A stretch of 60,230 nucleotides of DNA from a virus (IMGVR_UViG_3300021964_000063:1-60230), one strand, 5' to 3'; positions 33,722 through 57,139 are shown, counted from the stretch's first letter. Numbers and translations are program-made. Notes: generated by a model from the sequence alone, not told the origin.

Positions 33722-33775
33722 CGGAATTAAATCACTCCACTTCAATCTGTATTTTAACGTATTATGTAGAGAAAG

Positions 33776-33997: not shown

Positions 33998-34182
33998 AAC
34001 TTTTTTTACATCGTCGCTTTATATAGAACTCACGGGTACACACTTTTGTAGGTTAGGGTAGTAGAACGTTTTAAGGAAGGGGGGGTCCTTTATATTAACC
34101 TTACCTTACCTTAGGGGTACGCTACGCTCCGCGTTTCGCCATCATAAATCCGCCATAATACTGTCGGATTCACAACACTGTA

Positions 34183-34212
34183 AGTATAGCATATATGCCC
34201 CCTATGTGTCAA
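34183..34212 (-). promoter_or_regulatory. Sigma70-type promoter TTGACA-18-TATACT with extended TG
   Basis: - strand TTGACACATAGGGGGCATATATGCTATACT. Confidence 0.65.
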
Positions 34213-34243
34213 ACAAAGAGGGCACTGTAAGATTCACATAGTA

Positions 34244-34390
34244 TCAGAAATCAATGGCGTTAAGTGTTCCCTCTGATGCGTCTGAGTTATCGATAGATTG
34301 TGCCTCATCGGCAATCACATCGAGGATACTCAGAATTTCTGCGCCAGTGTTACCCTGAGACAGCATACCAAGAAGAAGTTCGCGAGACAT
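34244..34390 (-). CDS. Hypothetical protein, 48 aa (MSRELLLGMLSQGNTGAEIL...)
   Basis: Read manually; open ATG..TGA. Confidence 0.65.
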   Translation of the reverse strand: MSRELLLGMLSQGNTGAEILSILDVIADEAQSIDNSDASEGTLNAIDF

Positions 34391-34448
34391 AATGAAGAAG
34401 AAAAATGTGAGTTAGTAAGCAGTTTAAAGTCATACTTAGGACTGTGTG

Positions 34449-34703
34449 TTAGTTGTTAGATAGTGCTCTAAGTTCATCAAGGCACATCTTGAAGATATCT
34501 GGTTCGTCCATAACATCCAGATCTTCTAAAGTCATATCCCCCGCCATAGAATCACAAATAACTTGTGTTGCTTGGAACTCGTCAAGTATACCCGAAACCT
34601 TATTCTTTGAGCGTAGGAAGTCTGAGTAATCCATCAGTTTTTCACAGGCATTTTCCATGATACTGTTGATGCGTCGGTGCTCGTCTGTGATGATGATGGT
34701 CAT
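34449..34703 (-). CDS. Hypothetical protein, 84 aa
   Basis: ORF track; ATG 18 nt after repeat copy 1. Confidence 0.7.
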   Translation of the reverse strand: MTIIITDEHRRINSIMENACEKLMDYSDFLRSKNKVSGILDEFQATQVICDSMAGDMTLEDLDVMDEPDIFKMCLDELRALSNN

Positions 34704-34721
34704 GCGTGATTGCGTCCCTAC

Positions 34722-34750
34722 ACTATAGGGGAACTTTAGAGGTTACTAAC
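34722..34750 (-). promoter_or_regulatory. 29-bp repeat copy 1 (putative promoter/cassette boundary)
   Basis: actataggggaactttagaggttactaac. Confidence 0.7.
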
Positions 34751-34788
34751 AATAATACCCTGTTACTATCTCTCAGTCTTTCCCTTAT

Positions 34789-34817
34789 ATTGTAGCACCT
34801 ATATGACTCTGAGTCAA
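34789..34817 (-). promoter_or_regulatory. Sigma70-type promoter TTGACT-17-TACAAT
   Basis: - strand TTGACTCAGAGTCATATAGGTGCTACAAT. Confidence 0.6.
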
Positions 34818-34853
34818 GTGCAGTCCTGTGGGGGAAAAATGTTGCTGGTGCTG

Positions 34854-34882
34854 TTGACTTTTGAGAGAAAGTGTGATATAGT
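34854..34882 (+). promoter_or_regulatory. Divergent sigma70-type promoter TTGACT-17-TATAGT facing a non-coding region
   Basis: ttgacttttgagagaaagtgtgatatagt. Confidence 0.55.
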
Positions 34883-34958
34883 GCGGTCTTAGATAACAAT
34901 AAGAATGAGAGTTTCTAGAGACTTAAGTAACAAATAGGAAGAGGGTTAAGTAAGGGGT

Positions 34959-35093
34959 TTCTCCACAGATTATAGTGATTAAACCACATATAACCCCACC
35001 TTTTCAACAGGGTTGTGGAAAACAAACAAAACACACATATACATTTAAAATAACATTAATAAACGTTTTTTTAATGAAAACATGTTATTTATG
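34959..35093. other. DnaA-box-like cluster plus AT-rich tract (possible origin-like element)
   Basis: TTCTCCACA 34959-34967, TTTTCAACA 35001-35009, TGTGGAAAA (TTTTCCACA on -) 35014-35022; AT-rich 35041-35093. Confidence 0.4.
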
Positions 35094-35112
35094 GGTGTTT
35101 TGTAGGTGATAC

Positions 35113-35316
35113 TTAGGGATTCAAACCAAACCAAGTCTGAGCATCATAGCAATCAATCACCTCTTCTTTAATGTCATCCATTTCATAATCTTTAAGGTTT
35201 TCAACAATAGTATCCACAGCAAGAGTAACTAAAGACTTAATATCCATTCCTTCTACAATCATCTCAGCATAGCGTTGCTTAAGTCCTTCAAGTTTTTCGG
35301 TGTTGGTGATAGTCAT
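35113..35316 (-). CDS. Hypothetical protein, 67 aa
   Basis: ORF track; ATGA coupling with upstream ORF. Confidence 0.7.
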   Translation of the reverse strand: MTITNTEKLEGLKQRYAEMIVEGMDIKSLVTLAVDTIVENLKDYEMDDIKEEVIDCYDAQTWFGLNP

Positions 35317-35459
35317 TGGATTACTTTTGATGGTGGATTAAGTAGTCTTTCGAGTGCTTCATTCCTTTCATTGATTGTATCTGTAAGATTACTATCTAAC
35401 AGATCAATCATTAGATTAGCACCTAATATAATGAAGATAGCAAGGAAGATAATTCTCAT
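35313..35459 (-). CDS. Small membrane protein, 48 aa (MRIIFLAIFIILGANLMIDLL...)
   Basis: Read manually; hydrophobic N-terminus; 4-nt overlaps with both neighbours. Confidence 0.7.
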   Translation of the reverse strand: MRIIFLAIFIILGANLMIDLLDSNLTDTINERNEALERLLNPPSKVIQ

Positions 35460-35803
35460 GAGAAGACATAACCATTAGTGAATGTTACGTTCTTGAATAC
35501 ATTCTTTCCATTGATTGCTCCTACGAAAAGTCTTACATACCACTGAAAGTCTTTCTGAAATACACCTTCTCCTCTCTCACAGAACTCAGAACAGAGTGCA
35601 TTAAGTCTGGATTTTGTTGTAGTTGATTGATAACCGCCATCAAAAATTGTCATCGAATCATCAGTGATTTCCGCAATCTTGTTACCATGAAGACGAACGA
35701 TTGAGGTTCCTGTCTCTTCATTAAAGTGAACTGTTGTATTAGCATTAGACCAGTTTTGATTTGACTGGATTGCTTGGCACATTTGGGATTCGATTTTACG
35801 CAT
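35456..35803 (-). CDS. Conserved phage hypothetical protein, 115 aa
   Basis: MRKIESQM, LHGNKIA, GGYQS.TTKSRLNAL; ATG 21 nt after repeat copy 2. Confidence 0.8.
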   Translation of the reverse strand: MRKIESQMCQAIQSNQNWSNANTTVHFNEETGTSIVRLHGNKIAEITDDSMTIFDGGYQSTTTKSRLNALCSEFCERGEGVFQKDFQWYVRLFVGAINGKNVFKNVTFTNGYVFS

Positions 35804-35824
35804 TTGAGTTTGAGTGATGTCTAT

Positions 35825-35853
35825 ACTATAGGGGAACTTTAGAGGTTACTAAC
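35825..35853 (-). promoter_or_regulatory. 29-bp repeat copy 2
   Basis: Identical to consensus. Confidence 0.7.
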
Positions 35854-35868
35854 TTTAATAGGGAAGAA

Positions 35869-35976
35869 TCAACGGAGTTTTAAATAACCGTGTTCTACCA
35901 TTAAATCAATGAACTTAATACATTGATTACCTGTTTCCATCTGAGAGAGATGATAATATACAGTTGAAAGTTTCAT
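35869..35976 (-). CDS. Hypothetical peptide, 35 aa (MKLSTVYYHLSQMETGNQCI...)
   Basis: Read manually; stop 15 nt before repeat copy 2. Confidence 0.5.
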   Translation of the reverse strand: MKLSTVYYHLSQMETGNQCIKFIDLMVEHGYLKLR

Positions 35977-36008
35977 AGTTGATTGTGATGATTGTGATGT
36001 GATTTGAA

Positions 36009-36197
36009 TCAGAAAGGGTTAGACCATGACTCATATTTTTTCATGGTGATATGTCCTTCCTTACAAAGTGCATCAGTATAGATACTCCATGCTTCACGTT
36101 TTGCGATGCTATCAGTTGCTCTCCGTGTACCCTTGGTTGATACTTTCCAGTTGTATCGGAACTGATCTAATGCCTGTGCTTTGGTGATGGTTCTCAT
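36009..36197 (-). CDS. Hypothetical protein, 62 aa (...YESWSNPF)
   Basis: ORF track; ATG 19 nt after repeat copy 3. Confidence 0.75.
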   Translation of the reverse strand: MRTITKAQALDQFRYNWKVSTKGTRRATDSIAKREAWSIYTDALCKEGHITMKKYESWSNPF

Positions 36198-36216
36198 GAT
36201 TGGTTGAAGTGCTTAC

Positions 36217-36245
36217 ACTATAGAGGAACTTTAGAGGTTACTAAC
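36217..36245 (-). promoter_or_regulatory. 29-bp repeat copy 3
   Basis: actatagaggaactttagaggttactaac; supplies the TAG stop of the upstream ORF. Confidence 0.7.
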
Positions 36246-36432
36246 AATAATGCTTTCTCTTGATTCTTTCTATTTGCTGTATGATATTCTTATAAGAACA
36301 ACGATCAGATGGTGTCTTTGATGTAACTATCCTTTCGTTAAGTTCTGGATTATAATATATCTTATGTGTCTTTTGTCGTATTAAATGATAACCTTCGGAT
36401 TGTAAATGTTTCGTGATTTGTAACTTCTTCAT
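36241..36432 (-). CDS. HicA-like toxin (dsRBD-fold mRNA interferase-like), 63 aa
   Basis: L..EGYHLIRQKTHKIY...IVTSKTPSD pattern, size and basicity resemble HicA. Confidence 0.6.
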   Translation of the reverse strand: MKKLQITKHLQSEGYHLIRQKTHKIYYNPELNERIVTSKTPSDRCSYKNIIQQIERIKRKHYC

Positions 36433-36713
36433 GCCTGATAATACTCCCCGATTGATTTACTTATCACAATCAGTTGTTCATGAACTTCCTCAATTAATGC
36501 TTGAATATCATCCTCCTCTCCTAATAATGCCATATGATCAACTTCATCCCAATCTTCTACATTAATACTTCCATCATTGTATTGTGGAGTATAGTATAGT
36601 GTGCCCTCACTATCAATTGAATAGGCACAACCATGATCATCACAAGTTAATACAATCATCTCATCAACCTCCAAACATTTGATCAAATAGAGACTGTCCT
36701 GAACGTTCATCAT
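36429..36713 (-). CDS. Acidic hypothetical protein (likely start 36659, MIVLTCDDHG)
   Basis: ORF track; ATGA overlap with HicA-like gene. Confidence 0.7.
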   Translation of the reverse strand: MMNVQDSLYLIKCLEVDEMIVLTCDDHGCAYSIDSEGTLYYTPQYNDGSINVEDWDEVDHMALLGEEDDIQALIEEVHEQLIVISKSIGEYYQA

Positions 36714-36846
36714 CGTTCATCTTTTCATTCTCTCGCATACAAACAAGAAAGTTAATCTGTGATTGAATGTCCTCAACTTCATTCTGAAGTTTCTCTTTTC
36801 TGAAGTTTAACTCCATGATACTTTTGTTGATTTCAACTGTAGTCAT
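36664..36846 (-). CDS. Coiled-coil hypothetical protein, 60 aa
   Basis: ORF track. Confidence 0.7.
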   Translation of the reverse strand: MTTVEINKSIMELNFRKEKLQNEVEDIQSQINFLVCMRENEKMNDDERSGQSLFDQMFGG

Positions 36847-36887
36847 AGTTTTGAAAATAGTAAGGTTGTTAAGTTGTTCTTTAAGAT

Positions 36888-37100
36888 TCAGTTTGATGCC
36901 TCCATAAACACATCATAGAAACAATCAAATGCCGCAGGATCATGACAGAATGAAGAGATTCCACTTTGATCAGAAACCCAGTCATATGCCATATCAATAT
37001 CGGCACCTGTCTCTAATACAAAGGATTGTAACCCTTGAAGAGCATTTACGAAAGCAGAGTCGTTCAGAAGCATTTTGTTGTTGTTTGTAGTTGTGTTCAT
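36888..37100 (-). CDS. Hypothetical protein, 70 aa (start may be the second Met, MLLND)
   Basis: ORF track; first ATG abuts repeat copy 4. Confidence 0.7.
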   Translation of the reverse strand: MNTTTNNNKMLLNDSAFVNALQGLQSFVLETGADIDMAYDWVSDQSGISSFCHDPAAFDCFYDVFMEASN

Positions 37101-37129
37101 ACTATAGGGGAACTTTAGAGGTTACTAAC
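37101..37129 (-). promoter_or_regulatory. 29-bp repeat copy 4
   Basis: Identical to consensus. Confidence 0.7.
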
Positions 37130-37134
37130 AATAA

Positions 37135-37302
37135 TCAAAATATATTTGTCCATGCATAATGTTTAGCAGAACTGATTCTTCCATCCTTAAGTAATCTATC
37201 ACATACTCGACAGAATACTTCAAACTTTTCCATTCGTGTCATGTTAGCATCAATTTTCATTGAAGTTTCACCGACGACTTTGAGAACTTGTCCTTTGAGC
37301 AT
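37135..37302 (-). CDS. Hypothetical protein, 55 aa (MLKGQVLKVVG...HYAWTNIF)
   Basis: Read manually; stop 5 nt before repeat copy 4. Confidence 0.7.
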   Translation of the reverse strand: MLKGQVLKVVGETSMKIDANMTRMEKFEVFCRVCDRLLKDGRISSAKHYAWTNIF

Positions 37303-37306
37303 GATG

Positions 37307-37582
37307 TTAGTTAGCAGTTACAATACGATGATAACCTTGTTCTTTATGAAGATTTTTAATAGTTTTAACTTCATGAAGTTTGGTTAGAGTATAATCATAA
37401 CCATCCTCATATTCAAGATACTTTGCATATTCAATCGCAGATAGTTCATCCTTGAAAATCATCATTGATTTGAAATCTTCGTTTTGGGAGTGATACCCAC
37501 CGATGACAGAATACAGCATGATGTTAGTTAAGAGTTTACAGTGAGTGAGGGGAATCACCCCACACATGCCATGGGTGCCCAC
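37307..37582 (-). CDS. Hypothetical protein (likely start 37519, MLYSVIGG)
   Basis: ORF track; TAACTAACATC leader precedes ATG 37519. Confidence 0.65.
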   Translation of the reverse strand: MGTHGMCGVIPLTHCKLLTNIMLYSVIGGYHSQNEDFKSMMIFKDELSAIEYAKYLEYEDGYDYTLTKLHEVKTIKNLHKEQGYHRIVTAN

Positions 37583-37827
37583 TCTTCACGAGGCATTTTG
37601 TCGGTGTGGTAGTTAGTTACCTCAGCACCTCCAGCAATACGTTCTGCCCATTCGTGCTTGGCATCGATCATACCCACAACACTGTAGGATTTCATACCAT
37701 TAACACGGAAAGTGACACGCTTAACGAAACGTTTGATGACAACTTTCATGCCTTTGACTTCATCTGCCTCAGCAATGAATGCCTCAGGGAAGAAATCAAC
37801 GATACAGACGGAGTTTGAGAGTTGCAT
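37555..37827 (-). CDS. Conserved phage hypothetical protein, 90 aa
   Basis: ORF track; ATG 20 nt after repeat copy 5. Confidence 0.75.
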   Translation of the reverse strand: MQLSNSVCIVDFFPEAFIAEADEVKGMKVVIKRFVKRVTFRVNGMKSYSVVGMIDAKHEWAERIAGGAEVTNYHTDKMPREEWAPMACVG

Positions 37828-37847
37828 ATGGTTTGAGAAGTGCTTAC

Positions 37848-37876
37848 ACTATAGAGGAACTTTAGAGGTTACTAAC
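37848..37876 (-). promoter_or_regulatory. 29-bp repeat copy 5
   Basis: actatagaggaactttagaggttactaac. Confidence 0.7.
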
Positions 37877-37881
37877 AATAA

Positions 37882-37916
37882 TTAAAATATATTTGTCCAT
37901 GCACGATGTTAGTTAG
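37882..37916 (-). pseudogene. Internally deleted remnant of a paralogue of 37135-37302
   Basis: Leader CTAACTAACATC is joined directly to the last codons (HRAWTNIF-stop), then the repeat. Confidence 0.55.
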
Positions 37917-37934
37917 TGAATGAATGAGTAAGTG

Positions 37935-38087
37935 TTACTCAGGACGAAGTTTGACTGTAATAATCTCAAAGTTTGGATGTAATTCTGTGCATCTTGCATA
38001 TGCTTCAGCAGCAGTTTCTCTCATGTAAGAGAGCACATCGTGCATCTCTTTTTTGTTGTCGTAACCGTAGCAATTCCAGATAGGCAT
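37935..38087 (-). CDS. Hypothetical protein, 50 aa (MPIWNCYGYDNKKEMH...)
   Basis: Read manually; open ATG..TAA. Confidence 0.65.
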   Translation of the reverse strand: MPIWNCYGYDNKKEMHDVLSYMRETAAEAYARCTELHPNFEIITVKLRPE

Positions 38088-38114
38088 GTGATTTAGTGAA
38101 TGAATGAGTTAGTA

Positions 38115-38273
38115 TCAGTCGTAAGGGAAAAAAGAAGAACGGGTTGAATCTGTCTCGTAAGGAATGTCAAAGTCCTCGCCAAACATTCGATAGTAAAGAT
38201 CACTGAAGATAGCAAAATCATCAGGAGTTTCGTTGTTCCAGATTCTCAGGATTTCGTCGTAGGTGTTTCTCAT
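38115..38273 (-). CDS. Hypothetical protein, 52 aa (MRNTYDEILRIWNNETPDDF...)
   Basis: Read manually; ATG abuts repeat copy 6. Confidence 0.65.
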   Translation of the reverse strand: MRNTYDEILRIWNNETPDDFAIFSDLYYRMFGEDFDIPYETDSTRSSFFPYD

Positions 38274-38302
38274 ACTATAGGGGAACTTTAGAGGTTACTA
38301 AC
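38274..38302 (-). promoter_or_regulatory. 29-bp repeat copy 6
   Basis: Identical to consensus. Confidence 0.7.
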
Positions 38303-38306
38303 ATTA

Positions 38307-39194
38307 TTACCTATTAAACTTGCCCTCTGTGAAGTTTACATAACTGAAAACAGTACGGTTCACTAACTTGATCGCACCTTCCTCACTCCAATATACAAAA
38401 CCCTCTCCTACAGTTTGTGTACCATCAGGGAGAAATGTATCAAAGTCAGAATATACAATCATACTATCAATCACGTCCTCTTTCAGTTCAATCACCCACT
38501 GATATAAGTTTGTAAGATGTGGACAACGTAAGATAGTTGTGAGAACTCCATCATCTAACTCAACACCAGATTTAATCAACTGATTGATTGCTTGCTTCGC
38601 ACGATTTGCTTGCTTAGGTGATAGAAACTTTACTGTGTCTGTGTTAATAATAGGCGGTTCAATCTGCGATGCAATACGATCAACAATTGGCATCACAAAC
38701 TTGACATGTGGAGTATCATCGAAGTTTGTACGAATCGGAAGCGGTGCAGCATCACATAGTTCACCATCAATGTAATACTTTGTATGTGGTGCGATAACAA
38801 GTTTCTGATAGATTTTCTCTCCGAAGATATATGTTAGTGTGTTATTTGAAAATACTTCTGTTCTACCAAACCCAAGGAAGTCACCCTGATATACACCATC
38901 AACGCGAGGCATATATTTCAGCATAAGATACAATATATCTGCTACATCATCTTGATGTCCAAAGTGTGTAAAGATGTCCTCTGTTGTATAACAAAGTCGA
39001 ATCTTTTTCTTGTTGAATGCTGCTTTAGTACAAACAAAAAACTTACCATTAGCAGGATTAGTCCCCCATACAACAGCAGGAGCACCATCCATCTTTAAAC
39101 TAATATGATAAGCATTGCTATAAAGTGCATCAAAGATAGAAAGATCACCAGTCAAAATGGTGTCTTCAGCGTGTTCTAAGTGAGTGTTTGGCAT
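38307..39194 (-). CDS. DUF6267-like protein with ligase-type nucleotidyltransferase motifs
   Basis: NTHLEH.ED N-terminus, KMDG (motif I), QGDF, EGFV (motif IV), KLVNR (motif V). Confidence 0.65.
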   Translation of the reverse strand: MPNTHLEHAEDTILTGDLSIFDALYSNAYHISLKMDGAPAVVWGTNPANGKFFVCTKAAFNKKKIRLCYTTEDIFTHFGHQDDVADILYLMLKYMPRVDGVYQGDFLGFGRTEVFSNNTLTYIFGEKIYQKLVIAPHTKYYIDGELCDAAPLPIRTNFDDTPHVKFVMPIVDRIASQIEPPIINTDTVKFLSPKQANRAKQAINQLIKSGVELDDGVLTTILRCPHLTNLYQWVIELKEDVIDSMIVYSDFDTFLPDGTQTVGEGFVYWSEEGAIKLVNRTVFSYVNFTEGKFNR

Positions 39195-39223
39195 ACTATA
39201 GAGGAAGTTTAGAGGTTACTAAT
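39195..39223 (-). promoter_or_regulatory. 29-bp repeat copy 7
   Basis: actatagaggaagtttagaggttactaat. Confidence 0.7.
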
Positions 39224-39262
39224 AATAATCGTGAAGTGATTAGAATCACTTAATCGCTTCAT

Positions 39263-39448
39263 TTACATTCCGTTCATGTATTCGTGAAGTTCCTGATAGT
39301 ATTGTTCTTCAGTCTCAAATGTGCGACCATGAATCACACATGGAAACGTTTTCTTTTGAAACATTGTTGACGCAACTTGTACGTCCTGTTTATCATAACC
39401 CATTTCAATCAGGGTGTCCACGTAAGGGTTGTTTGTAGTGTTATTCAT
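39263..39448 (-). CDS. Hypothetical protein, 61 aa
   Basis: ORF track; ATG abuts repeat copy 8. Confidence 0.75.
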   Translation of the reverse strand: MNNTTNNPYVDTLIEMGYDKQDVQVASTMFQKKTFPCVIHGRTFETEEQYYQELHEYMNGM

Positions 39449-39477
39449 ACTACAGGGGAACTTTAGAGGTTACTAAC
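39449..39477 (-). promoter_or_regulatory. 29-bp repeat copy 8
   Basis: actacaggggaactttagaggttactaac. Confidence 0.7.
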
Positions 39478-39486
39478 AATTATACA

Positions 39487-39750
39487 TTAGAATCCTCTCG
39501 TTGATAGTTCATTATCAACAACTCTTAATATTTCATCAACGATATAATCATGGTCACTAGAGTTAATCTCTGCTAGTACCATTTTTGCTTCATTAGCAGC
39601 AAGTATTACCTCTTTATCACTATTATCATCTTCGGTCAATAAATCATCGTTCGTTATTACCCATGCAGCACAAGGTCCAGTATCACCGTGCTTACGGATT
39701 AGTGCCTTTACATAAGTATCAAGTTCACGCAATGTTTTACACTTTTTCAT
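39487..39750 (-). CDS. Hypothetical protein, 87 aa
   Basis: ORF track; ATGA coupling. Confidence 0.7.
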   Translation of the reverse strand: MKKCKTLRELDTYVKALIRKHGDTGPCAAWVITNDDLLTEDDNSDKEVILAANEAKMVLAEINSSDHDYIVDEILRVVDNELSTRGF

Positions 39751-39971
39751 TTCTTTCTCCGTTTCTTGTGTTTATCTATAAAGGCGATTGCTGATTGTTT
39801 GTTTCTACACACTTTGAGAACATTTGCTTGATGAACAATAGCGAGTTTAGTTGTGCTTCCAGCAATAGGTACAGCAGCATACATCATAGGGTCATCATAG
39901 TTTCCAACGATGAATCCTTCCTCATATGGTTTAGCATCAAGCACACTTGTCTTGATATATGTTATCTTCAT
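39747..39971 (-). CDS. Hypothetical protein, 74 aa
   Basis: ORF track; ATGA coupling with helicase. Confidence 0.7.
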   Translation of the reverse strand: MKITYIKTSVLDAKPYEEGFIVGNYDDPMMYAAVPIAGSTTKLAIVHQANVLKVCRNKQSAIAFIDKHKKRRKK

Positions 39972-41149
39972 CGGCGCACCACACTATCAAGAACTTCACC
40001 CTTTTCAAAAACGATGTCTACAACCCTTTGCAATGCTTTCTCGGTGGATATACCCACATTGCTGTAAACAGGCACACAGAGCATTCCAAAGGTCTTAGAA
40101 TCGCTTCCGCAACGTATCACACGACCCACAGTCTGAGTCATCTCAATCACATCCATATTGCGTAGGAAAACGACTGCTTCCAACTCACTGACGTTGATAC
40201 CTTCAGACAGAATAGAGCGATGAAGTACAACAAACTTCTTGTTAGTATCTTTGCCCCAAGCATTAAGAACTTCAAAGAATTTCTCACGAGATACTTTCTT
40301 ACCGTCAACAATCGCACCAGTCTTGGATGTGATATAGAGGTAAGAGTATCCACGCTCTTTGAGGTCATCAGCAAAATCTGTCTGAAACAGATTGATAAGT
40401 TGTCTGCTAGTCTTGACACAAACAAGAATCTTCTTGATACTGATTTGATCAATAGTTTCTATCACATTGTTGCTTTCAATGTGTGGAGTCAGACTCTTTT
40501 TGTCGTGCTTACCCATCTGAATCACCTTGACTTTAGGCGGCAAGATATATCCACCCTGAACAAGATTAGGTGCAGAAACTTTAGCAATGATGTCCCCATA
40601 GATCTCTCTATCGTTCATTCCTGGTTTCTTGATAGTCACCGAGGTCTTGCGTGTTGCTGTGAAATAGTAGCAACGATCAGCACGACGAGAGAAATACTTT
40701 ACAGACTCATGAAAGTTACGTTGAACACTATTGTGTGCTTCGTCAAAGTAAATCGTATCAACATCAATGTTTGCGTCTACAATACGATGCAGAGAGTGAT
40801 ATGTGGTGAAGATGATAACATGCTCACGCACTGTTTGACACATATCAACAAACAGTTTGATACGATCAGTCTTTGTAGTTTTGAAATGCTTAGTCTCACC
40901 ACTGTGAACATGGAGGACGTTAGCATTAGTTACCTGCTCAAGAAAATCGTTGGAGAGTTGCTCAACCAACAAAATGCGAGGACACACAACAACAATGGTA
41001 CGAGGACTAGAGACTTCAAATCTCTTTACCGCATCCATAATTGCAACCAATGTCTTACCACCACCAGTGGGAAAGATACATTGACCAATAGAGTTAGTTT
41101 GTAGTGCGTTGAGTGCTTCTTGCTGATGAGGGCGAAGACTTACGGTCAT
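39968..41149 (-). CDS. SF2 DEAD/DEAH-box helicase (type III restriction Res-like)
   Basis: LRPHQ, PTGGGKT (Walker A), DEAH, TAT, LSEGINV, QTVGRVIR. Confidence 0.9.
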   Translation of the reverse strand: MTVSLRPHQQEALNALQTNSIGQCIFPTGGGKTLVAIMDAVKRFEVSSPRTIVVVCPRILLVEQLSNDFLEQVTNANVLHVHSGETKHFKTTKTDRIKLFVDMCQTVREHVIIFTTYHSLHRIVDANIDVDTIYFDEAHNSVQRNFHESVKYFSRRADRCYYFTATRKTSVTIKKPGMNDREIYGDIIAKVSAPNLVQGGYILPPKVKVIQMGKHDKKSLTPHIESNNVIETIDQISIKKILVCVKTSRQLINLFQTDFADDLKERGYSYLYITSKTGAIVDGKKVSREKFFEVLNAWGKDTNKKFVVLHRSILSEGINVSELEAVVFLRNMDVIEMTQTVGRVIRCGSDSKTFGMLCVPVYSNVGISTEKALQRVVDIVFEKGEVLDSVVRR

Positions 41150-41164
41150 TAAGTTCGTTGCTGT

Positions 41165-41193
41165 ATTACTAAGGAGTTTTGGAGGTTACTAAC
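41165..41193 (-). promoter_or_regulatory. 29-bp repeat copy 9 (degenerate)
   Basis: attactaaggagttttggaggttactaac. Confidence 0.6.
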
Positions 41194-41195
41194 AA

Positions 41196-42047
41196 TTATA
41201 TGAAATGATTCTTGGTCTTGTATAACAATATCTCTCTTGCTTTCTTTGCTTCATATCCTGCCTCTGTTTTCTTTCTACGTCCCGCAGTGTAAGTGATATT
41301 AAAGTAATGGACATTCATTGACCTTGATTGATTATCAAACCAGTCATCATCAGCACGGTTAGCAACAAAAACTAAATTTTGCATATCGGCAAAGTCAAGA
41401 AGGTCTGACAGTGCATCATCACCAAATCCATTGCCATAATCAGCAAAACTATCACGATAGGGTGGATCAAAGAAGAAAAATCCATTCGGATCATTATTCA
41501 CTGAATCTTTCCAATCTCCTGTCTTGATAGTTACATTCTGAAGTGCATTATGCCACCAGTTCAATACACCACGATCATAAACTTTATCCTTTTGGTTCAA
41601 CAATCCAGCAGGAGTTCCATATCTTCCGTTGGTATTCTTGTTGAGTTGGTAGATACCATTAAACCCAGTCTTCATCAGGAAATATAATGTTGCTGCCTCA
41701 AATGTCTTGTTCCATTCTTTATACTCCCAACCGTGAAGATGTCTGATGTCAAAATAAAACTTCTTACGATCATCTTTGCTCAATGGTAGATACTGAGATT
41801 CAAGACTGTCCAGACGTTGTTGAAACTCTGCCAGGTTAGTCTTGATTGCTTTGTAGATGTTAACAACATCAGAGTTGATGTCATTAATCACAGCATTCTT
41901 TGGTTGGTAGGTGTTCATCACATAGACAAACATTGCACCACCACCAAAGAATGGTTCATAGTAAGTTTCAAAGGAAGATGGCATAAAAGGTGCATAATGT
42001 TTCAGCACCTTTGTCTTACCACCTGCCCAAATAAAGAGAGGTTTCAT
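41196..42047 (-). CDS. dam: DNA adenine methyltransferase (Dam/D12 class)
   Basis: WAGGK, EPF.GGG, INDIN, GFNGI, DPPY motifs. Confidence 0.9.
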   Translation of the reverse strand: MKPLFIWAGGKTKVLKHYAPFMPSSFETYYEPFFGGGAMFVYVMNTYQPKNAVINDINSDVVNIYKAIKTNLAEFQQRLDSLESQYLPLSKDDRKKFYFDIRHLHGWEYKEWNKTFEAATLYFLMKTGFNGIYQLNKNTNGRYGTPAGLLNQKDKVYDRGVLNWWHNALQNVTIKTGDWKDSVNNDPNGFFFFDPPYRDSFADYGNGFGDDALSDLLDFADMQNLVFVANRADDDWFDNQSRSMNVHYFNITYTAGRRKKTEAGYEAKKAREILLYKTKNHFI

Positions 42048-43063
42048 TCAGAATCTTCTTCGGTTTTATTGTTTGTCGTTTTAACTTTAGATGGATCTCC
42101 CAAACCATAGTTAGCGAGTGTATCCTCTCCTATTGGAGATCCTTCAATCGCACCATATGCAAGAGCAGAACGATACTCATCAACAAAACGACGGGCAATC
42201 AACACAAATTGAGCGTTTCCTGCGGTTTTATCTGCAAGTTCTTTGGGAGTGAGTTTATTTGCAATGAGTTCAGATTCAATGAAGTTCACCAATCCAGTGC
42301 GTCTTGATGTACCTTTATTCAATGAATTTTTGAGATACACGACAGCAGATAGACCTCCAATCATTGAACCCTGAAGATCAACACTCTTTTTAGTTTTCCA
42401 CTTGCTTGCTGATTTAGTAGAAGTAAGAAGTTGATTGTAATACTTTATTGCTTCTTTTACTGTTGAAAGTTCATAAGTATTCACTGCTTCCATCAGTTTA
42501 GCATAACCTTTTACAGAATATCCTTCTGAATGACCAATTTTTTCAACATGAACACCCAGTTCAACTAAAGTATCACGAACTTGCATTGCTTCTTTAACAC
42601 TAGCAGCAATATCTGTGCGAAGTTGAGCAACCTGACTTACTGCTGTGCGGTTGACATTAACTTCTTTGAATAGTTTTGCCTCTACTTCTACACATTCTTC
42701 GTTACTAGCATTTGGATCATGCTCAAATACTTGTGCTTGAAGTGTCATTGTCTCTGGATTCATGCAGTAAATTGCTGCTAATACACTCTCATGTTGTCCA
42801 TCAACAATAGCAAATTTTCCGTCTGGACGACGATAAAGACGTAGAGGACTATAAAGACTAGGATCAAATCTTCCTGCCTTTTTAATCATAGCTTCAATGA
42901 GAAGTCGTTGATATTTCTCATCAATGTAGAGTTGACTTAACACTACATCTACAATGGGAGGAAAATCATCTGGTTTTATTTCTTTTCTTATTCCAGCAAT
43001 ACCAAGATTTTTTGCAAAGTCCAGCAAATTTACCAGACCATCATTTTGGGAATCGTAATTCAT
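42044..43063 (-). CDS. ParB/Srx-like N-terminal domain protein (DGQH motif)
   Basis: L.IDEKYQR, F.IVDGQH, EAKLF..VN..R. Confidence 0.65.
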   Translation of the reverse strand: MNYDSQNDGLVNLLDFAKNLGIAGIRKEIKPDDFPPIVDVVLSQLYIDEKYQRLLIEAMIKKAGRFDPSLYSPLRLYRRPDGKFAIVDGQHESVLAAIYCMNPETMTLQAQVFEHDPNASNEECVEVEAKLFKEVNVNRTAVSQVAQLRTDIAASVKEAMQVRDTLVELGVHVEKIGHSEGYSVKGYAKLMEAVNTYELSTVKEAIKYYNQLLTSTKSASKWKTKKSVDLQGSMIGGLSAVVYLKNSLNKGTSRRTGLVNFIESELIANKLTPKELADKTAGNAQFVLIARRFVDEYRSALAYGAIEGSPIGEDTLANYGLGDPSKVKTTNNKTEEDSE

Positions 43064-43119
43064 TTTGTTCTCCTTTGTTTAGTGTTGGCATATGCCATTG
43101 CGGCACCAACATGATAGTA

Positions 43120-43149
43120 ATTATACAACTAGTTGGGGTCAGTTGTCAA
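43120..43149 (-). promoter_or_regulatory. Consensus sigma70 promoter TTGACA-18-TATAAT
   Basis: - strand TTGACAACTGACCCCAACTAGTTGTATAAT, upstream of the ParB-like/dam pair. Confidence 0.75.
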
Positions 43150-43152
43150 CCA

Positions 43153-44025
43153 TTAGATTTTCACATTGACATATCCATCAGCAATCGCTTGAGTATCACC
43201 ACCACGTTTGAACTTTGGAGTGAACTTTAGATTGAGACCATCAATAATAGATGGATCTGCTATATTGACAATTTCCATTGTCTTATCTTTAATATACATG
43301 ATATTGTCCCATTTGTCAACTTCTTTGTACTGCTTTAGAGCAAACTTTCCGACAGCAGTATTGAACTTTACAGGATCTTTGTAGTTCTTCTTTACATCTT
43401 CAAAAAGTTGAGTAATATCACAACCAGGATAAAGTTCACTGAAGTAATCAAAATAAACTTCAGGTTTTTCAACTGACTTTACATGTTCGGAGAACTTTTT
43501 AGCATCTTTATATCCTGGTGCATGTCCTTCAAAATACTTATCATTCAGTTTATCAACTAAACCCTTATCAGTAACACCAGTTTTAATAGGTTTTAGACTT
43601 GCACCATCATCTTTCAACTCAGATTTTCTATTAGCACCATATCTACCATCATTATTGACAGAAAACTGGTAATCAGAAAAAATAAGAGGAAGAATCAACT
43701 CACCCTTGCCAATACCCTTTCCTTTGTTTGACAATAAGACTTCAAAGAGAAGAGGAAATATAATATCTCCCTTCAGTTTTTCTGGCACTAAATCCCACAA
43801 TGACTTACGAAAATTAGTGCCTAAAATATCAGTGCTTGTAAGATTGCTTTCATCTTCAAGTAGGGAGAGAGTATTCTCGGCATCTCCATCAGTAACTACA
43901 TCAAAATAACAAAGATATGCCTTAAAATCTTGACGAAACCTATCAGCAGCAACATGACCTTTGATCCCTCTATTAATCAGTAAAGAATCTATTCTTTTTT
44001 CAAGATCTTTTGAGTACATAATCAA
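43153..44025 (-). CDS. Hypothetical protein, possible PD-(D/E)xK endonuclease
   Basis: GIGKGEL...ND......KSELK pattern; function is inference. Confidence 0.55.
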   Translation of the reverse strand: MIMYSKDLEKRIDSLLINRGIKGHVAADRFRQDFKAYLCYFDVVTDGDAENTLSLLEDESNLTSTDILGTNFRKSLWDLVPEKLKGDIIFPLLFEVLLSNKGKGIGKGELILPLIFSDYQFSVNNDGRYGANRKSELKDDGASLKPIKTGVTDKGLVDKLNDKYFEGHAPGYKDAKKFSEHVKSVEKPEVYFDYFSELYPGCDITQLFEDVKKNYKDPVKFNTAVGKFALKQYKEVDKWDNIMYIKDKTMEIVNIADPSIIDGLNLKFTPKFKRGGDTQAIADGYVNVKI

Positions 44026-44219
44026 TAAGAATAGGTGGAGAGATTGCGAGCAGGGACATGATACCCATTCTTAGGGTTGTTCACATCAAAAACCCATACT
44101 AACTCATCATCGGATGCTTTGTAAACATCCATGCAAAACATAGGAACAAGTTTTACCATAAGAGCACCCCAGTGATACTCTGTTTCAAAATCAAATGTCA
44201 TAAGATCAGAAGTGCTCAT
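44022..44219 (-). CDS. Hypothetical protein, 65 aa
   Basis: ORF track; first ATG abuts repeat copy 10. Confidence 0.7.
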   Translation of the reverse strand: MSTSDLMTFDFETEYHWGALMVKLVPMFCMDVYKASDDELVWVFDVNNPKNGYHVPARNLSTYSY

Positions 44220-44248
44220 ACTATAGAGGAGTTTTAGAGGTTACTAAC
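44220..44248 (-). promoter_or_regulatory. 29-bp repeat copy 10
   Basis: actatagaggagttttagaggttactaac. Confidence 0.7.
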
Positions 44249-44252
44249 TTTA

Positions 44253-44417
44253 TTAGTCACAGACTGGACGCACAGAGTTAATAATAACCTTTTCGGCAGG
44301 ATACATTGATTCCACCAAATCTTCAACGAAAGAACGTTCAGAACGGTCAGATTCTATGTTGAAGTTGTGACGGCGACCGCGTGAGTCAATCCAAGCACCA
44401 GAACAATCGTAATACAT
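44253..44417 (-). CDS. Hypothetical protein, 54 aa (MYYDCSGAWIDSRGRRHNF...)
   Basis: Read manually; stop 4 nt before repeat copy 10. Confidence 0.7.
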   Translation of the reverse strand: MYYDCSGAWIDSRGRRHNFNIESDRSERSFVEDLVESMYPAEKVIINSVRPVCD

Positions 44418-44455
44418 TTTTGTTAGTTAGTAAAGAGAATAAAGATAAAAGTATA

Positions 44456-44863
44456 TTATCCGTTACACCATCCCATAATCTCACAACCTGGGTCAGATAA
44501 CATTTCTTCTTTGATGCCATTTGCTTTACATACTTCCCAGTCTTCATAAGTACAATCACGAAGATACTTTCCATCCTTATCATGCACTGAGGCATATTGT
44601 GAGATGTAAAAGTCCCACTTGAACCCTTTATCTCTCATCTCCAGATCATCATCACTATTCCAAATATCCCAATCAATTGCTTCAACATCTTTCTCTGATA
44701 ATCCATACTTCTTTAAGCATTCATCAGTCAACCACAAGAAACCAGAGTGATTCTGGTCCCAATTGTAATACTCACCATCAACCTCATCTAACATATCAAG
44801 GTCAGATTGTTCTGTCAAATCATACTCATGCGCCATGATCGTCTCTCTCGTTAAGTGTTTCAT
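44456..44863 (-). CDS. Acidic hypothetical protein
   Basis: ORF track, 135 aa. Confidence 0.7.
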   Translation of the reverse strand: MKHLTRETIMAHEYDLTEQSDLDMLDEVDGEYYNWDQNHSGFLWLTDECLKKYGLSEKDVEAIDWDIWNSDDDLEMRDKGFKWDFYISQYASVHDKDGKYLRDCTYEDWEVCKANGIKEEMLSDPGCEIMGWCNG

Positions 44864-45008
44864 TGATAATGTCCTTGAGTTCCTGACGTTCCTCTGGTGT
44901 AAAGATAGTGCGTTTCTTTACAGGCATAGGGGGAAACTTTCGATTTGAGGTAATGTTACCATTACCAGGCAAACTCATGCCTTGAGTATCAATCTTGTCC
45001 ATGAACAT
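44826..45008 (-). CDS. Hypothetical protein, 60 aa
   Basis: ORF track. Confidence 0.65.
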   Translation of the reverse strand: MFMDKIDTQGMSLPGNGNITSNRKFPPMPVKKRTIFTPEERQELKDIINETLNERDDHGA

Positions 45009-45009
45009 A

Positions 45010-45222
45010 TCAAGCAGCAGGTGCTTCAGTTGATGCTTTGCCTACGTTAGAAGGACCAACCCAAACAAGGTTATTCTCCTTCCAATATGTTACAAATGCA
45101 CGACGAAGTTCAGTCAGTTCAGTGTAACGTGACTGCTGCTCTTTAGTATAAGAGAAGTTTTGTGTGCGCCATACCTTACGCAGTTCCTGAAGTTCGCGGA
45201 GCACTTGTGAAGAGTTGTTCAT
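45010..45222 (-). CDS. Hypothetical protein, 70 aa
   Basis: ORF track; ATG 17 nt after repeat copy 11. Confidence 0.7.
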   Translation of the reverse strand: MNNSSQVLRELQELRKVWRTQNFSYTKEQQSRYTELTELRRAFVTYWKENNLVWVGPSNVGKASTEAPAA

Positions 45223-45239
45223 GTCATCGTGTGTCTTAC

Positions 45240-45268
45240 ACTACAGAGGAACTTTAGAGGTTACTAAC
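45240..45268 (-). promoter_or_regulatory. 29-bp repeat copy 11
   Basis: actacagaggaactttagaggttactaac. Confidence 0.7.
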
Positions 45269-45269
45269 T

Positions 45270-45815
45270 TTAACTACCAGGAAGTGCCTTGCGTTGAGGT
45301 GCAGCATTGAGTGCAGTCCTTACAGGTGAACTACTCAAACTCTTACGTTCTGGAGATGAACTTAACTGCGGGGATGCTTTCTTACCTTTCATAAGATCAG
45401 GTCTTTGTGCTGTACCTAATTGGGGTCTAAAAGACGCTGTAGCAGGTCTTTTAACAGCAGGTTGAGGTTTACTTACCTTTGCGATTGCACCGCCCTTAGA
45501 AGATGATTTATCAGCAGGTTTTGAACTTCTATATGGTTGAGGTTTTCTTGATTGTGTAGAACCTGCCGTATTCTGTCCAGCATTCTTTACTTCTTGACCA
45601 GCATTCTTAGCAATGTTTTGCTTCTCTTTAGGCGTTGCTTTTCTACCTTTCTTTTTATTATCTCCAGAACCTAAACTTAAACCAAGTCTAGGTCTTTCCC
45701 TGAAAGGTTTAGTTGAACCACCTTGAGTTCCTGACTGTGGTGTAGAACCACTGCCGTAACTTGTTTGTGTTTGTTGTTCAATTGCTTCGCTAAAAAACTC
45801 TTGGAATGTCTTCAT
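45270..45815 (-). CDS. Basic low-complexity protein with capsid-targeting-like N-terminus (internal head protein candidate)
   Basis: MKTFQEFFSE resembles the T4 IP capsid targeting sequence; K/S/P/A-rich. Confidence 0.7.
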   Translation of the reverse strand: MKTFQEFFSEAIEQQTQTSYGSGSTPQSGTQGGSTKPFRERPRLGLSLGSGDNKKKGRKATPKEKQNIAKNAGQEVKNAGQNTAGSTQSRKPQPYRSSKPADKSSSKGGAIAKVSKPQPAVKRPATASFRPQLGTAQRPDLMKGKKASPQLSSSPERKSLSSSPVRTALNAAPQRKALPGS

Positions 45816-50730: not shown

Positions 50731-50755
50731 GCCCCTGTGTCTTGTATGTACCTAC

Positions 50756-57087: not shown

Positions 57088-57139
57088 GCTTCATATCTGG
57101 TATTAATACCAATACCAAAACAACCAGATATTAATTTAT

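Follow-up and report, generated by a model that had tools for sequence, protein, structure and literature searches.

A repeated element, putatively a phage promoter, heads small gene units in a T4-like cyanomyovirus

Results

Repeat array and its genomic setting

The window, the whole 60,230-base stretch of DNA analysed here, represents part of the genome of a T4-like cyanomyovirus (Kyanoviridae); it encodes T4-type gp15, gp14, gp8, gp6 and gp25, with matches only to cyanomyoviruses. Between small unknown genes and the baseplate wedge genes, an element of 29-37 bp occurs eleven times on one strand, over positions 34722-45268 (Table 1). The 29-mer, at up to 3 mismatches, gave 10 matches, all on the - strand, against an expectation of 0.00 from dinucleotide-preserving shuffles (0/100 shuffles reached 10), and the repeat search added a degenerate eleventh copy at 41164-41200. 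A 15-mer core at up to 1 mismatch matched 0 times forward and 11 times in reverse in the whole record and a PWM scan of the 60-kb record recovered just these 11 sites and none outside the array, which bears out the sequence-only reading of eleven co-oriented copies confined to one part of the window.

Spacing from repeat to repeat is 254-3055 nt, as expected from the proposed unit size of 0.25-3 kb, and the downstream ATG directly follows the repeat (0 nt) at 5 copies and is 15-21 nt away at the other 6, within the 0-21 nt described earlier. The tight fit claimed for the upstream stops is seen in part: their distance ahead of the repeat is 1, 2, 4, 4, 5, 9 or 39 nt, and at copy 3 the stop falls 5 nt within the repeat, but at copies 1, 2 and 5 our own ORF calls leave gaps of 362, 155 and 58 nt, the first being a stretch devoid of ORFs. 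The repeat had also been described as lacking a terminator hairpin and a canonical TTGACA, and this was confirmed: all 8 terminator-like hairpins called lay more than 100 nt away from the nearest of the 11 copies, and no copy was among the 49 sigma-70 consensus matches in 33500-46500. The -35-like TTAGTA agrees with the consensus at 3/6 positions and TATAGT at 5/6. Five 61-nt stretches folded no better than shuffles (-2.0 to -6.1 kcal/mol, z +0.38 to +1.43), and within the element of the window genome stop codons occur in three of three frames. Altogether, the data support a dedicated element heading gene units. The suggestion that these units carry anti-defence cargo was not upheld, as only 2/12 proteins matched PADLOC models, namely an orphan Dam-type methyltransferase and a generic helicase, and 10/12 matched nothing.

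Table 1. Repeat copies and the cassette between copies 6 and 5, listed in transcription order (window coordinates).
Feature	Position	Strand	Remarks
Copy 11	45240..45268	-	First in transcription order; followed by GTA; ATG of 70-aa gene 45010-45222 17 nt downstream
Copy 10	44220..44248	-	3 mismatches; ATG adjoins; heads gene 44022-44219
Copy 9	41165..41193	-	Degenerate (21/29 identical to consensus); 15 nt upstream of helicase gene 39968-41149
Copy 8	39449..39477	-	ATG adjoins; 61-aa gene 39263-39448, phrog_649 aligned from residue 1
Copy 7	39195..39223	-	3 mismatches, ATTAGTAAC; ATG adjoins; DUF6267 gene 38307-39194
Copy 6	38274..38302	-	ATG adjoins, start of gene 38115-38273
Cassette between copies 6 and 5	37877..38273	-	Two small genes, 38115-38273 and 37935-38087
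Copy 5	37848..37876	-	Followed by GTA; ATG of gene 37555-37827 (84% identical to Syn9 gp73) 20 nt downstream
Copy 4	37101..37129	-	ATG adjoins; heads gene 36888-37100
Copy 3	36217..36245	-	Upstream stop within repeat; ATG of gene 36009-36197 (71% identical to Syn9 gp68) 19 nt downstream
Copy 2	35825..35853	-	Followed by ATA; ATG of Kyano_Gp96 gene 35456-35803 (52% identical to Syn9 gp90) 21 nt downstream
Copy 1	34722..34750	-	Last in transcription order; followed by GTA; ATG of gene 34449-34703 18 nt downstream

Anatomy of the element

On the gene strand the element consists of an A/T-rich stretch, a 9-nt box, the spacer CTCTAAAGTTCCYC, the hexamer TATAGT and RTRAGCAC. The box, GTTAGTAAC in the window genome, sits at the place of a -35 element, TATAGT is -10-like, and both the spacer and RTRAGCAC are conserved. 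TTAGTA and TATAGT are 16 nt apart, with a conserved C-A step at nt 6-7 (C at 112/193 and A at 147/193 sites), and the base right after TATAGT is a purine in 193/193 sites. Some lineages carry AGTAGT, TGTAGT or TTTACT instead of TATAGT, and the A expected at position 2 of the -10 hexamer is then absent. Downstream of the element G is depleted, and the leader is unstructured and without a Shine-Dalgarno sequence.

Distances between TATAGT and the start codon have a bimodal distribution (32/102 sites at 0 nt, 2/102 at 1-14 nt, 57/102 at 15-25 nt and 9/102 at 27-119 nt), with a peak at 16-20 nt. An adjoining ATG is in frame with the open frame at 52/54 sites, and in 30 of the 54 another in-frame ATG follows at codons 5-11, in 19 of these 30 at codon 6. 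In the DUF6267 and w30 families the abutting start codon is the only possible one; the ATG adjoining copy 7 is the real start of the DUF6267 gene, as the Pfam alignment begins at residue 3. For the gene behind copy 10 the PHROG profile begins at residue 7, the second in-frame Met, and for that behind copy 4 homology to Syn9 begins at residue 11, right after the second in-frame Met (residue 10). Among 17 arrays read, the first element was never of the ATG type.

The 9-nt box is invariant inside a genome and different between genomes (e.g. GTTACTCAC, GTTACTTAG, GTTAGGCAC), its columns having a uniformity of 0.99-1.00 within genomes versus 0.50-0.94 across genome consensuses. Pairs of copies from one genome (n=390) had a mean identity of 0.759; pairs from different genomes reached 0.614 when they headed the same gene (n=232), and pairs heading other genes 0.583 (n=6518). 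Four nearly identical helicases (clade support 96/100) belong to genomes with four different boxes, and on the helicase tree box type carried no signal (12 changes versus a shuffled mean of 12.2). The palindrome had been taken for the best-conserved part of the repeat and proposed as a binding core placed like the MotA box; in fact GTTAGTAAC is invariant solely within the window genome, and the block is the most variable one across relatives and mostly non-palindromic.

Distribution among phages and genes

A homologous 11-copy array lies at the syntenic place in the isolate SynMITS9220M01, and the core occurs at at least 174 IMG/VR loci, in every case on the gene strand. In 41 related sequences the gene strand carried 108 sites and the opposite strand 0, and all listed sites were on one strand in 18/18 multi-site IMG/VR contigs. 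Prokaryote genomes (596 Gb) yielded 45 scattered single matches and none in marine Synechococcus or Prochlorococcus; the element is phage-only. Two of the long records have the whole array within a single region of 4-14 kb (36.3-50.0 kb of a 190-kb isolate and 235.6-239.9 kb of a 284-kb record), and the sites listed in a 205-kb record span 44.1-54.4 kb.

The element is carried by the first genes of units and other genes are without it. Across genomes it stays with the same genes: it heads 11/31 helicase, 14/27 DUF6267, 9/26 w20, 11/19 x1, 8/14 w30 and 6/6 x21 genes, and the neighbouring families w28, w18 and w12 were never element-headed (0/26, 0/24 and 0/23).

The window-type element has no copy in Syn9, and no PWM hit there reached 4 bits. 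The syntenic methyltransferase-helicase-baseplate region of Syn9 holds a different repeat in 5 copies, which bear a GTGTCCAC-like box upstream and, in many cases, a GC hairpin plus T-run. In both phages the local repeat heads three orthologous pairs (gp68/36009-36197, gp73/37555-37827 and gp90/35456-35803), and in the gp68 and gp73 pairs the ATG is preceded by TATAAG at 19 nt in Syn9 and by TATAGT at 19-20 nt in the window.

Gain and loss of gene units

Two cassette indels relative to the relative L194 (92-95% identical) run exactly from repeat to repeat, the alignments overlapping by the repeat length. Copy 11 is the exact insertion point of an extra repeat-plus-gene cassette in L194, and copy 6 is the upstream boundary of the cassette 37877-38273, which is present in the window and absent in L194, L195 and L196 (92-98% identical). 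A block of high identity to L194 starts at 41196, 2 nt from copy 9, and the x21 unit was found in three different contexts. Over all comparisons, block ends fell at elements in 11/62 cases, with 63/361 gene junctions holding an element, so there was no enrichment and 51/62 breakpoints lay away from repeats. The proposed gain or loss of whole repeat-gene units is supported by the two exact indels, but not as a general rule for breakpoints, and the repeat is most likely an occasional point of gene gain or loss. The tyrosine recombinase family PF00589 was absent in 5/5 records (the window and 4 relatives, among them the complete genome of an isolate and an IMG/VR record with a completeness rating of 100%), with a positive control in 14/14 genomes, and scanning 64 window ORFs against Pfam gave no recombinase or integrase family, in agreement with the earlier statement that the window holds no integrase.

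Discussion

A putative promoter module

In the reading we lean towards, a T4-like cyanomyovirus uses the repeat as a phage-specific promoter module, probably read by the host multisubunit RNA polymerase, and the copies also act as substrates for homologous recombination. Such a module would head small transcription units in the plastic stretch that precedes the baseplate wedge genes. This reading draws on the single orientation of the sites, their retention by the same genes, the equivalence with the Syn9 repeat, the element's geometry and unstructured leader, and its restriction to phages. With the -10-like TATAGT and the genome-private box at the -35 place, transcription would start about 6-8 nt after TATAGT, and a G-poor, unstructured leader would follow, with the start codon usually 15-25 nt after the hexamer. 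Given near-identity over about 37 bp at each of 11 places, the copies may double as substrates for homologous recombination, which would add or remove whole repeat-plus-gene units and homogenise the copies of one genome; a dedicated recombinase would not be involved. As a counterpoint to the promoter module, the sigma-70 consensus scan flags 0 copies, the -35-like hexamer agrees at only 3/6 positions, the hexamers that replace TATAGT in some lineages lack the A expected at position 2, and breakpoints show no enrichment at repeats. Furthermore, a start 6-8 nt downstream would leave an ATG abutting TATAGT off the local transcript, so that these sites would need read-through from upstream copies, a dependence fitted by the nature of the first element in the arrays read. 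Three RNA runs yielded contigs of relatives only, and 31-mer assemblies break at such repeats.

Alternative readings

Instead of the host enzyme alone, the promoter class might need a phage-specified factor, the 9-nt box being the target of a co-evolving phage protein that is delivered with the virion or made first and transcription starting at the purine after TATAGT; we consider this possible but unlikely. It would account for a box that is invariant per genome and different between genomes, even among the four near-identical helicases and without tree signal, for the universal purine, for the scarcity of starts at 1-14 nt and for the in-frame abutting ATGs, and one third of the units would then have leaderless mRNAs and the rest 15-25 nt leaders. 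However, a candidate factor was not found, no T7-type polymerase is encoded (the single-subunit RNA polymerase PF00940 was absent from 4 records, with a T7 control at E=9.9e-110), and a start 1 nt past TATAGT is outside sigma-70-family geometry. Many apparently leaderless cases may be ordinary, because the second ATG at codon 6 lies at the usual leader distance; frequent recombination among copies also explains the likeness within a genome, and the first element is never of the ATG type in the 17 arrays read. A broader form of the idea, which we hold to be doubtful, is a private promoter code of each cyanomyovirus lineage, in which a shared core is joined to a 9-nt box identical at 5-12 copies per genome and differing even between phages with near-identical helicases. 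A fast-evolving, phage-encoded and possibly virion-delivered specificity factor would then redirect the host RNA polymerase to the first genes of the phage, some transcripts would start leaderless at the purine, and the element would act as a self/non-self label for early transcription in co-infection and as a seam for the exchange of gene units.

Quite improbable in our view is that the repeat works at the RNA level, as a translation-initiation region or processing site between the cistrons of long polycistronic transcripts and not as a promoter. The start codons at 0 nt, the unstructured, G-poor character, the stops in all three frames in the window genome and the lack of terminators between units all suit it. 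Ribosome entry would, however, predict a fixed distance, and most starts lie 15-25 nt or even 27-119 nt away; moreover, no RNA role suggests itself for the variable box, only some genes, the first of units, carry the element, and the Syn9 counterpart combines a hairpin and T-run with TATAAG, i.e. a promoter-terminator architecture. The integron-like interpretation, in which a dedicated recombinase excises or inserts cassettes at the repeat, is scarcely credible: the two repeat-to-repeat indels and single-gene units such as x21 in different contexts speak for it, whereas PF00589 was missing from the 5 records and no recombinase or integrase family appeared among the 64 window ORFs scanned, inverted-repeat or hairpin structure is lacking, the repeat adjoins the start codons at the 5' end of genes rather than the 3' ends of cassettes, and most breakpoints are elsewhere.

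Comparison with known systems

A 'novel regulatory element' of early genes in T4-like cyanophages was reportedly described by Doron et al. in the ISME J in 2016. If the Syn9 repeat is, as we assume, the published one, our repeat shares with it the virus family, the kind of region and the downstream genes, but the sequences are unrelated save for the TATA-type hexamer and the window copies lack a hairpin. By positional orthology with the Syn9 array the promoter class of the window would be early, a timing that follows from this assumed identity.

PeSL (promoter-early stem-loop) cassettes are known from T4-type coliphages and vibriophages (Arbiol et al. 2010, PMC2839356; Comeau et al. 2014, PMC4122927), and the 2014 survey makes no mention of cyanophages, with 0 occurrences of 'cyano', Syn9, S-PM2 or P-SSM. 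As far as these accounts go, the window repeat resembles PeSL in being a dispersed, near-identical intergenic motif of a hyperplastic region of a T4-like genome, directly upstream of small genes of unknown function, with an A/T-rich stretch and upstream stop first and the start codon last. Indels bounded by two copies between close relatives may be a further likeness, with two such cases relative to L194. It differs in having no stem-loop or terminator, no sigma-70 consensus match and no Shine-Dalgarno sequence, and in that breakpoints are not enriched at its copies relative to gene junctions.

In integron arrays the IntI tyrosine recombinase adjoins, and attC sites, imperfect inverted repeats that fold as a hairpin, form the 3' end of promoterless cassettes; our repeat has neither an IntI-type recombinase nor attC-like structure, and it precedes or adjoins start codons. 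T4 middle promoters depend on MotA/AsiA and have a conserved MotA box near -30, unlike the box at this place in the cyanomyoviruses, which differs between genomes. T4-like cyanophages are reported to have no middle promoters and no motA/asiA (PMC5780444). The conservation of the window-type element reaches further upstream than that of T7-group promoters, which share the hexamer CTATAG; like them, however, it is compact (about 30 bp), conserved up to the purine and present in many copies whose sequences vary together in each genome. Rather than an integron, the repeat is most likely the phage's own promoter ahead of small gene units.

Genomic setting and anatomy of the element

The repeated element is real and widespread; it is probably a promoter, occasionally a seam of recombination, and not an integron. 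Genes identified in the window are those for the small terminase subunit, for the T4-type proteins gp15 (tail-sheath stabiliser), gp14 (neck protein), gp8, gp6 and gp25, and for a 4019-aa baseplate protein; others encode glycine-rich structural proteins, a carbamoyltransferase and a 2OG-Fe(II) oxygenase. Because of these proteins, and since its DNA matched only Synechococcus and Prochlorococcus myoviruses (72-83% over short stretches), the window was assigned to an uncultured T4-like cyanomyovirus (Kyanoviridae), of which the record is a fragment (linear according to IMG/VR, 28% complete according to CheckV). Screening for the 29-mer with up to three mismatches yielded ten matches, all on the minus strand (0.00 expected from dinucleotide-preserving shuffles), and a repeat search of the window gave a conserved unit of about 37 nt and an eleventh, degenerate copy. 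The 60,230-base record thus holds 11 sites in total, all in one orientation and none outside the array, as the sequence-only reading had counted; folding likewise bore out its statement that the repeat contains no terminator hairpin, and no Rfam-type RNA family or tRNA was found in the window. All genes of the region lie on the minus strand, the copies are intergenic, and the baseplate wedge genes follow directly downstream of the array in the direction of transcription. Read along the gene strand, the unit consists of an A/T-rich stretch, GTTAGTAAC, CTCTAAAGTTCCYC and the -10-like hexamer TATAGT, directly followed by ATG at five copies, GTA at four, ATA at one and ACA at the degenerate copy.

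Features of the window and their positions. Copies are numbered by coordinate; L194 is a related sequence and Syn9 a cyanophage isolate.
Feature	Position	Strand	Remarks
Array of eleven copies	34722-45268	-	
Copy 11	45240-45268	-	first in transcription order
Copy 9	41164-41200	-	degenerate
Copy 6	38274-38302	-	
Copy 5	37848-37876	-	
Extra unit relative to L194	37877-38273	-	two small genes, between copies 6 and 5
Non-coding stretch before copy 5	37877-37910	-	repeats 37130-37163
Counterpart of that stretch	37130-37163	-	3' end of gene 37135-37302
Gene upstream of copy 4	37135-37302	-	matches phrog_336
Counterpart of Syn9 gp68	36009-36197	-	71% identity; local repeat heads both; matches phrog_336
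Counterpart of Syn9 gp73	37555-37827	-	84% identity; local repeat heads both
Counterpart of Syn9 gp90	35456-35803	-	52% identity; local repeat heads both
Stretch without ORF (362 nt)	34751-35112	-	immediately upstream of copy 1
DUF6267 gene	38307-39194	-	in the array
Perfect sigma-70 consensus promoter	43120-43149	-	TTGACA, 18 nt, TATAAT (12/12)
ParB-like gene	42044-43063	-	
Second composite element	50753-50812	-	after glycine-rich gene 50809-51822, before small-gene run from 50645
Second composite element	57137-57196	-	precedes gene 56314-57063
Giant structural ORF	17141-29200	-	4019 aa, YHYH domain
Giant structural ORF	7944-15515	-	2523 aa, DUF4815

Distribution among phages and hosts

The element forms a family and is not peculiar to one contig. 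The core CCTCTAAAG-N5-CTATAGT was found at no fewer than 174 IMG/VR loci (at least 193 sites); the 80 loci listed correspond to 47 contigs (counted by reading), and among the IMG/VR matches listed all 18 contigs with several sites had them on one shared strand. The cyanophage isolate SynMITS9220M01 carries 11 copies of AATGTTACTCACCTCTAAAGTGTCCCTATAGT, all within 36.3-50.0 kb of its 190 kb, in a syntenic run of hypothetical genes, helicase and baseplate wedge. Of 41 sequences anchored on the helicase gene, 23 contain the element class, with 108 sites on the gene strand and none on the opposite one, and six of the other 18 contain visibly related or analogous repeats in comparable positions: the GTTACTCAC box with altered cores (L202, L203, L217), the repeat GTTAGGCACCTTTGCATTGTCCC (L227), a Syn9-type repeat (L199) and a hairpin with CCCTATAAT (L200). 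An 11-mer count gave no intergenic repeat in the remaining 12. Within 596 Gb of prokaryote genomes the core pattern yielded 45 scattered single matches in unrelated taxa and none in marine picocyanobacteria, and the idea of a host promoter was rejected because the core is missing from picocyanobacterial genomes.

The element as a probable promoter module

Certain genes keep the element from one genome to the next, which points to a promoter module: it heads the helicase gene in 11/31 cases, DUF6267 in 14/27 and the gene families w20, x1, w30, w42, x21 and w34 in 9/26, 11/19, 8/14, 6/11, 6/6 and 5/5, respectively, and never neighbours such as w28, w18 and w12. The spacing of TTAGTA, 16 nt, TATAGT, 6 nt and a conserved C-A step would fit the geometry of a sigma-70-family holoenzyme, and the stretch after TATAGT, which is G-poor and unstructured, resembles a leader free of a Shine-Dalgarno sequence, with start codons most frequent 16-20 nt past the hexamer. 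Some observations sit less well with this reading: the consensus scan flagged no copy, in agreement with the sequence-only reading, and in some lineages TATAGT is swapped for AGTAGT, TGTAGT or TTTACT. TAAAGT was rejected as the -10 element since relatives have CAAACG, CAATTG or GCATTG there, and a T7-like promoter since the four records scanned hold no gene for such a polymerase. Three marine RNA runs each contained 0.06-0.09 of the sampled words, with contigs derived from relatives that were mostly 90-95% alike; some contig ends adjoin repeats, where they are indistinguishable from assembly breaks at a 31-mer repeat.

Judged by positional orthology with Syn9, the element class would be early, and the perfect TTGACA-18-TATAAT promoter inside the array is in keeping with this timing. 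That promoter, the only canonical one inside the array, lies in the 89-nt gap before the genes for the ParB-like protein and the Dam methyltransferase, with AAGGAG preceding the ATG, and its temporal class may be another one.

The spacing between TATAGT and the start codon has a bimodal distribution: among 102 sites it is 0 nt at 32, 1-14 nt at two, 15-25 nt at 57 and above 25 nt at nine, with no start found at two. Where ATG abuts the hexamer it is in frame with an open frame at 52 of 54 distinct sites, the alternative frame being open at 11 of 54; the corresponding counts for GTA sites are 37/61 and 31/61. A second in-frame ATG occurs at codons 5-11 in 30 of the 54 abutting sites, 19 times at codon 6, and at codons 12-18 in only seven; codon 6 corresponds to the usual leader distance, so part of the abutting cases would be ordinary. 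Homology begins at or just after the second Met in two of the window's five abutting cases. Genes of the DUF6267 and w30 families can start only at the abutting ATG, and if transcription starts 6-8 nt past TATAGT they would be translated from read-through of upstream copies. There are hints that abutting-ATG genes are served in this manner, as the first element is never of the ATG type in 17 arrays (counted by reading) and DUF6267 has a leader in 4/4 cases when first in the array and mostly an abutting start (6/8) when internal, a comparison that carries little weight because the genomes are related. Alternatively, transcription could start at the purine after TATAGT and yield leaderless mRNAs; this base is a purine at 193/193 sites among the IMG/VR matches listed, but no sigma-70 geometry accommodates such a start, and the records scanned carry no phage RNA polymerase gene.

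Within-genome uniformity of the copies

We aligned 120 elements from 18 genomes. Elements of one genome were on average 0.759 identical (390 pairs); between genomes the mean was 0.614 where they head the same gene family (232 pairs) and 0.583 where they head different genes (6518 pairs). The nearest neighbour lay in the same genome for 50 of 82 elements and at the orthologous gene elsewhere for 26, mostly in close relatives. The box, a 9-nt block near -30, and two spacer columns are 0.99-1.00 uniform within genomes and only 0.44-0.94 across genome consensuses, so that the palindrome previously taken as the best-conserved part is no conserved core of the family. Box types did not cluster on the helicase tree (12 changes, minimum 9, shuffled mean 12.2), an outcome that helicase gene transfer or fast box turnover would equally produce, and one well-supported clade of four close helicases contains four different boxes. 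Either fast homogenisation of the copies by recombination or a box read by something that differs between phages would account for the uniformity; together with the divergence between genomes it constitutes a clean natural experiment on factor co-evolution versus recombination homogenisation.

Probable recombination at some repeats

The related sequence L194 is 92-95% identical to the window over 9.8 kb (helicase 99%) and differs by an extra unit, a repeat with gene x21, placed exactly at copy 11, and by the unit between copies 6 and 5 that is extra in the window. At both indels the alignments overlap by the repeat's 29-32 nt, the mark left by exchange between direct repeats; the latter difference is also present in L195 and L196. 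The degenerate copy 9 is 2 nt away from a third block boundary, and at three further events (45009/44420, 44016, 37555/37314) no repeat marks the ends. Across eight close pairs, 11 of 62 block ends fell in an element of at least one genome, seven of them in both; the window-L195 pair was left out because L195 and L194 are 99.8% identical. Elements occupy 0.7-4.2% of positions but 63 of 361 gene junctions, so block ends hit elements several times more often than random positions would, and no more often than gene junctions do. Thus the expectation that gene content changes at the repeats holds for the two exact repeat-to-repeat indels and not for breakpoints in general, and the alignments suggest that copies are sometimes seams of gene gain and loss, as with PeSLs, and do not chiefly determine where breakpoints fall. 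Among relatives the genes of the region stand in strongly reshuffled order, and x21, w30 and w31 units appear in varied contexts with the element in front. Nothing indicates a dedicated recombination enzyme: the proposed integron-like system was rejected, as a tyrosine recombinase is missing in 5/5 records (control positive in 14/14 genomes) and there is no hairpin.

The non-coding stretch before copy 5 and the gene end it repeats belong to regions that are 85% identical over 82 nt including the repeat, which looks like the scar of an older duplication or deletion carrying a gene end and a repeat.

Cargo and neighbouring features

The array carries small Kyanoviridae proteins of unknown function (Kyano_Gp96, DUF7326, several PHROGs), a DUF6267 protein, an SF2 helicase, a Dam-type methyltransferase and a protein with a weak ParB-like match. 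The guess of anti-defence cargo found no backing, as PADLOC matched only the helicase and the methyltransferase, both to generic models. Sequence search of the DUF6267 protein against the PDB gave nothing below E=0.08. Its gene lies in the array here and in many relatives and at 148822-149724 in Syn9, about 100 kb from the Syn9 array, so this conserved gene has moved between genome regions. In P-TIM68 (L320, KM359505.1, 48424-49212) the annotated CDS of the homologue begins at an internal Met in a KMDG motif; the open frame starts about 100 nt earlier (MKNLHLEHPED...), 23 nt past the element copy GTTAGTAACCTCTAAATTGACATAGTAAT, and the database start is probably too short. The stretch without ORF upstream of copy 1 folds at -85.7 kcal/mol (shuffles -68.4 +/- 5.0; z = -3.46; 0/100 shuffles fold as well); it has no Rfam match, and its first ~100 nt are weakly conserved in four relatives (L215, L202, L207, L203). 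The two giant structural ORFs sit between gp8 and gp6 and beyond; the GGX-type direct repeats of 51-58 kb are part of three glycine-rich proteins (PF21722), not of the giant ORFs.

Relation to known systems

T4-like cyanophages rank among the most abundant viruses that infect the main primary producers of the ocean. The way they switch on their first genes is not well understood, as they lack the MotA/AsiA system of T4; the relevant passages of one source describe them as without middle promoters and motA/asiA (PMC5780444). The motif is compact, easily recognised and phage-limited, and it marks one class of transcription unit, so the early/plastic region can be delimited in metagenomic contigs. 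Moreover, it could serve as a portable promoter in the engineering of cyanophages and cyanobacteria, and it supplies a defined sequence with which to pull down its reader.

Syn9 contains no copy of the element; it has its own repeat, five copies of TCTATAAGAGTCAAAGG with an upstream GTGTCCAC-like box and often a GC hairpin and T-run, at 46.3-53.1 kb among methyltransferase, helicase and baseplate wedge genes. Three orthologous genes are headed by the local repeat in both phages, and for the gp68 and gp73 pairs TATAAG (Syn9) or TATAGT (here) lies 19-20 nt before the ATG. By this analogy two unrelated sequences that share only a -10-like hexamer would do the same job, which suggests that the Syn9 repeat is the functional counterpart of the element. 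A second composite element of 60 nt is present twice in the window, with 95% identity between the copies; it combines a CTGTCCAC box with a GC hairpin (CCCCGCAGGCAACTGTGGGG), a T-run and then TTATAGTA, a layout similar to that of the Syn9 repeat and of a terminator-promoter (PeSL-like) unit; this hairpin-bearing element likewise ends in TTATAGTA, which we counted in favour of the promoter reading of the repeat.

Doron et al. in 2016 reportedly found a novel regulatory element for Syn9 early genes, conserved among T4-like cyanophages, and host-like promoters are said to lie at middle genes. This early element would be the closest functional relative, and its presumed Syn9 form is unrelated in sequence. 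The full-text literature searched held no description of the motif, also under the word CTAAAG with 'cyanophage', and the element may already be in print. The closest described system is the PeSL of T4-type phages (PMC2839356, PMC4122927): the two have in common their genomic place and the habit of lying upstream of ORFans, and the two repeat-bounded indels against L194 may be a further likeness, whereas the stem-loop and sigma-70 consensus that define PeSLs are missing from the element. With these exact indels, modular shuffling of the PeSL type would reach cyanophages too, in a hairpin-free form.
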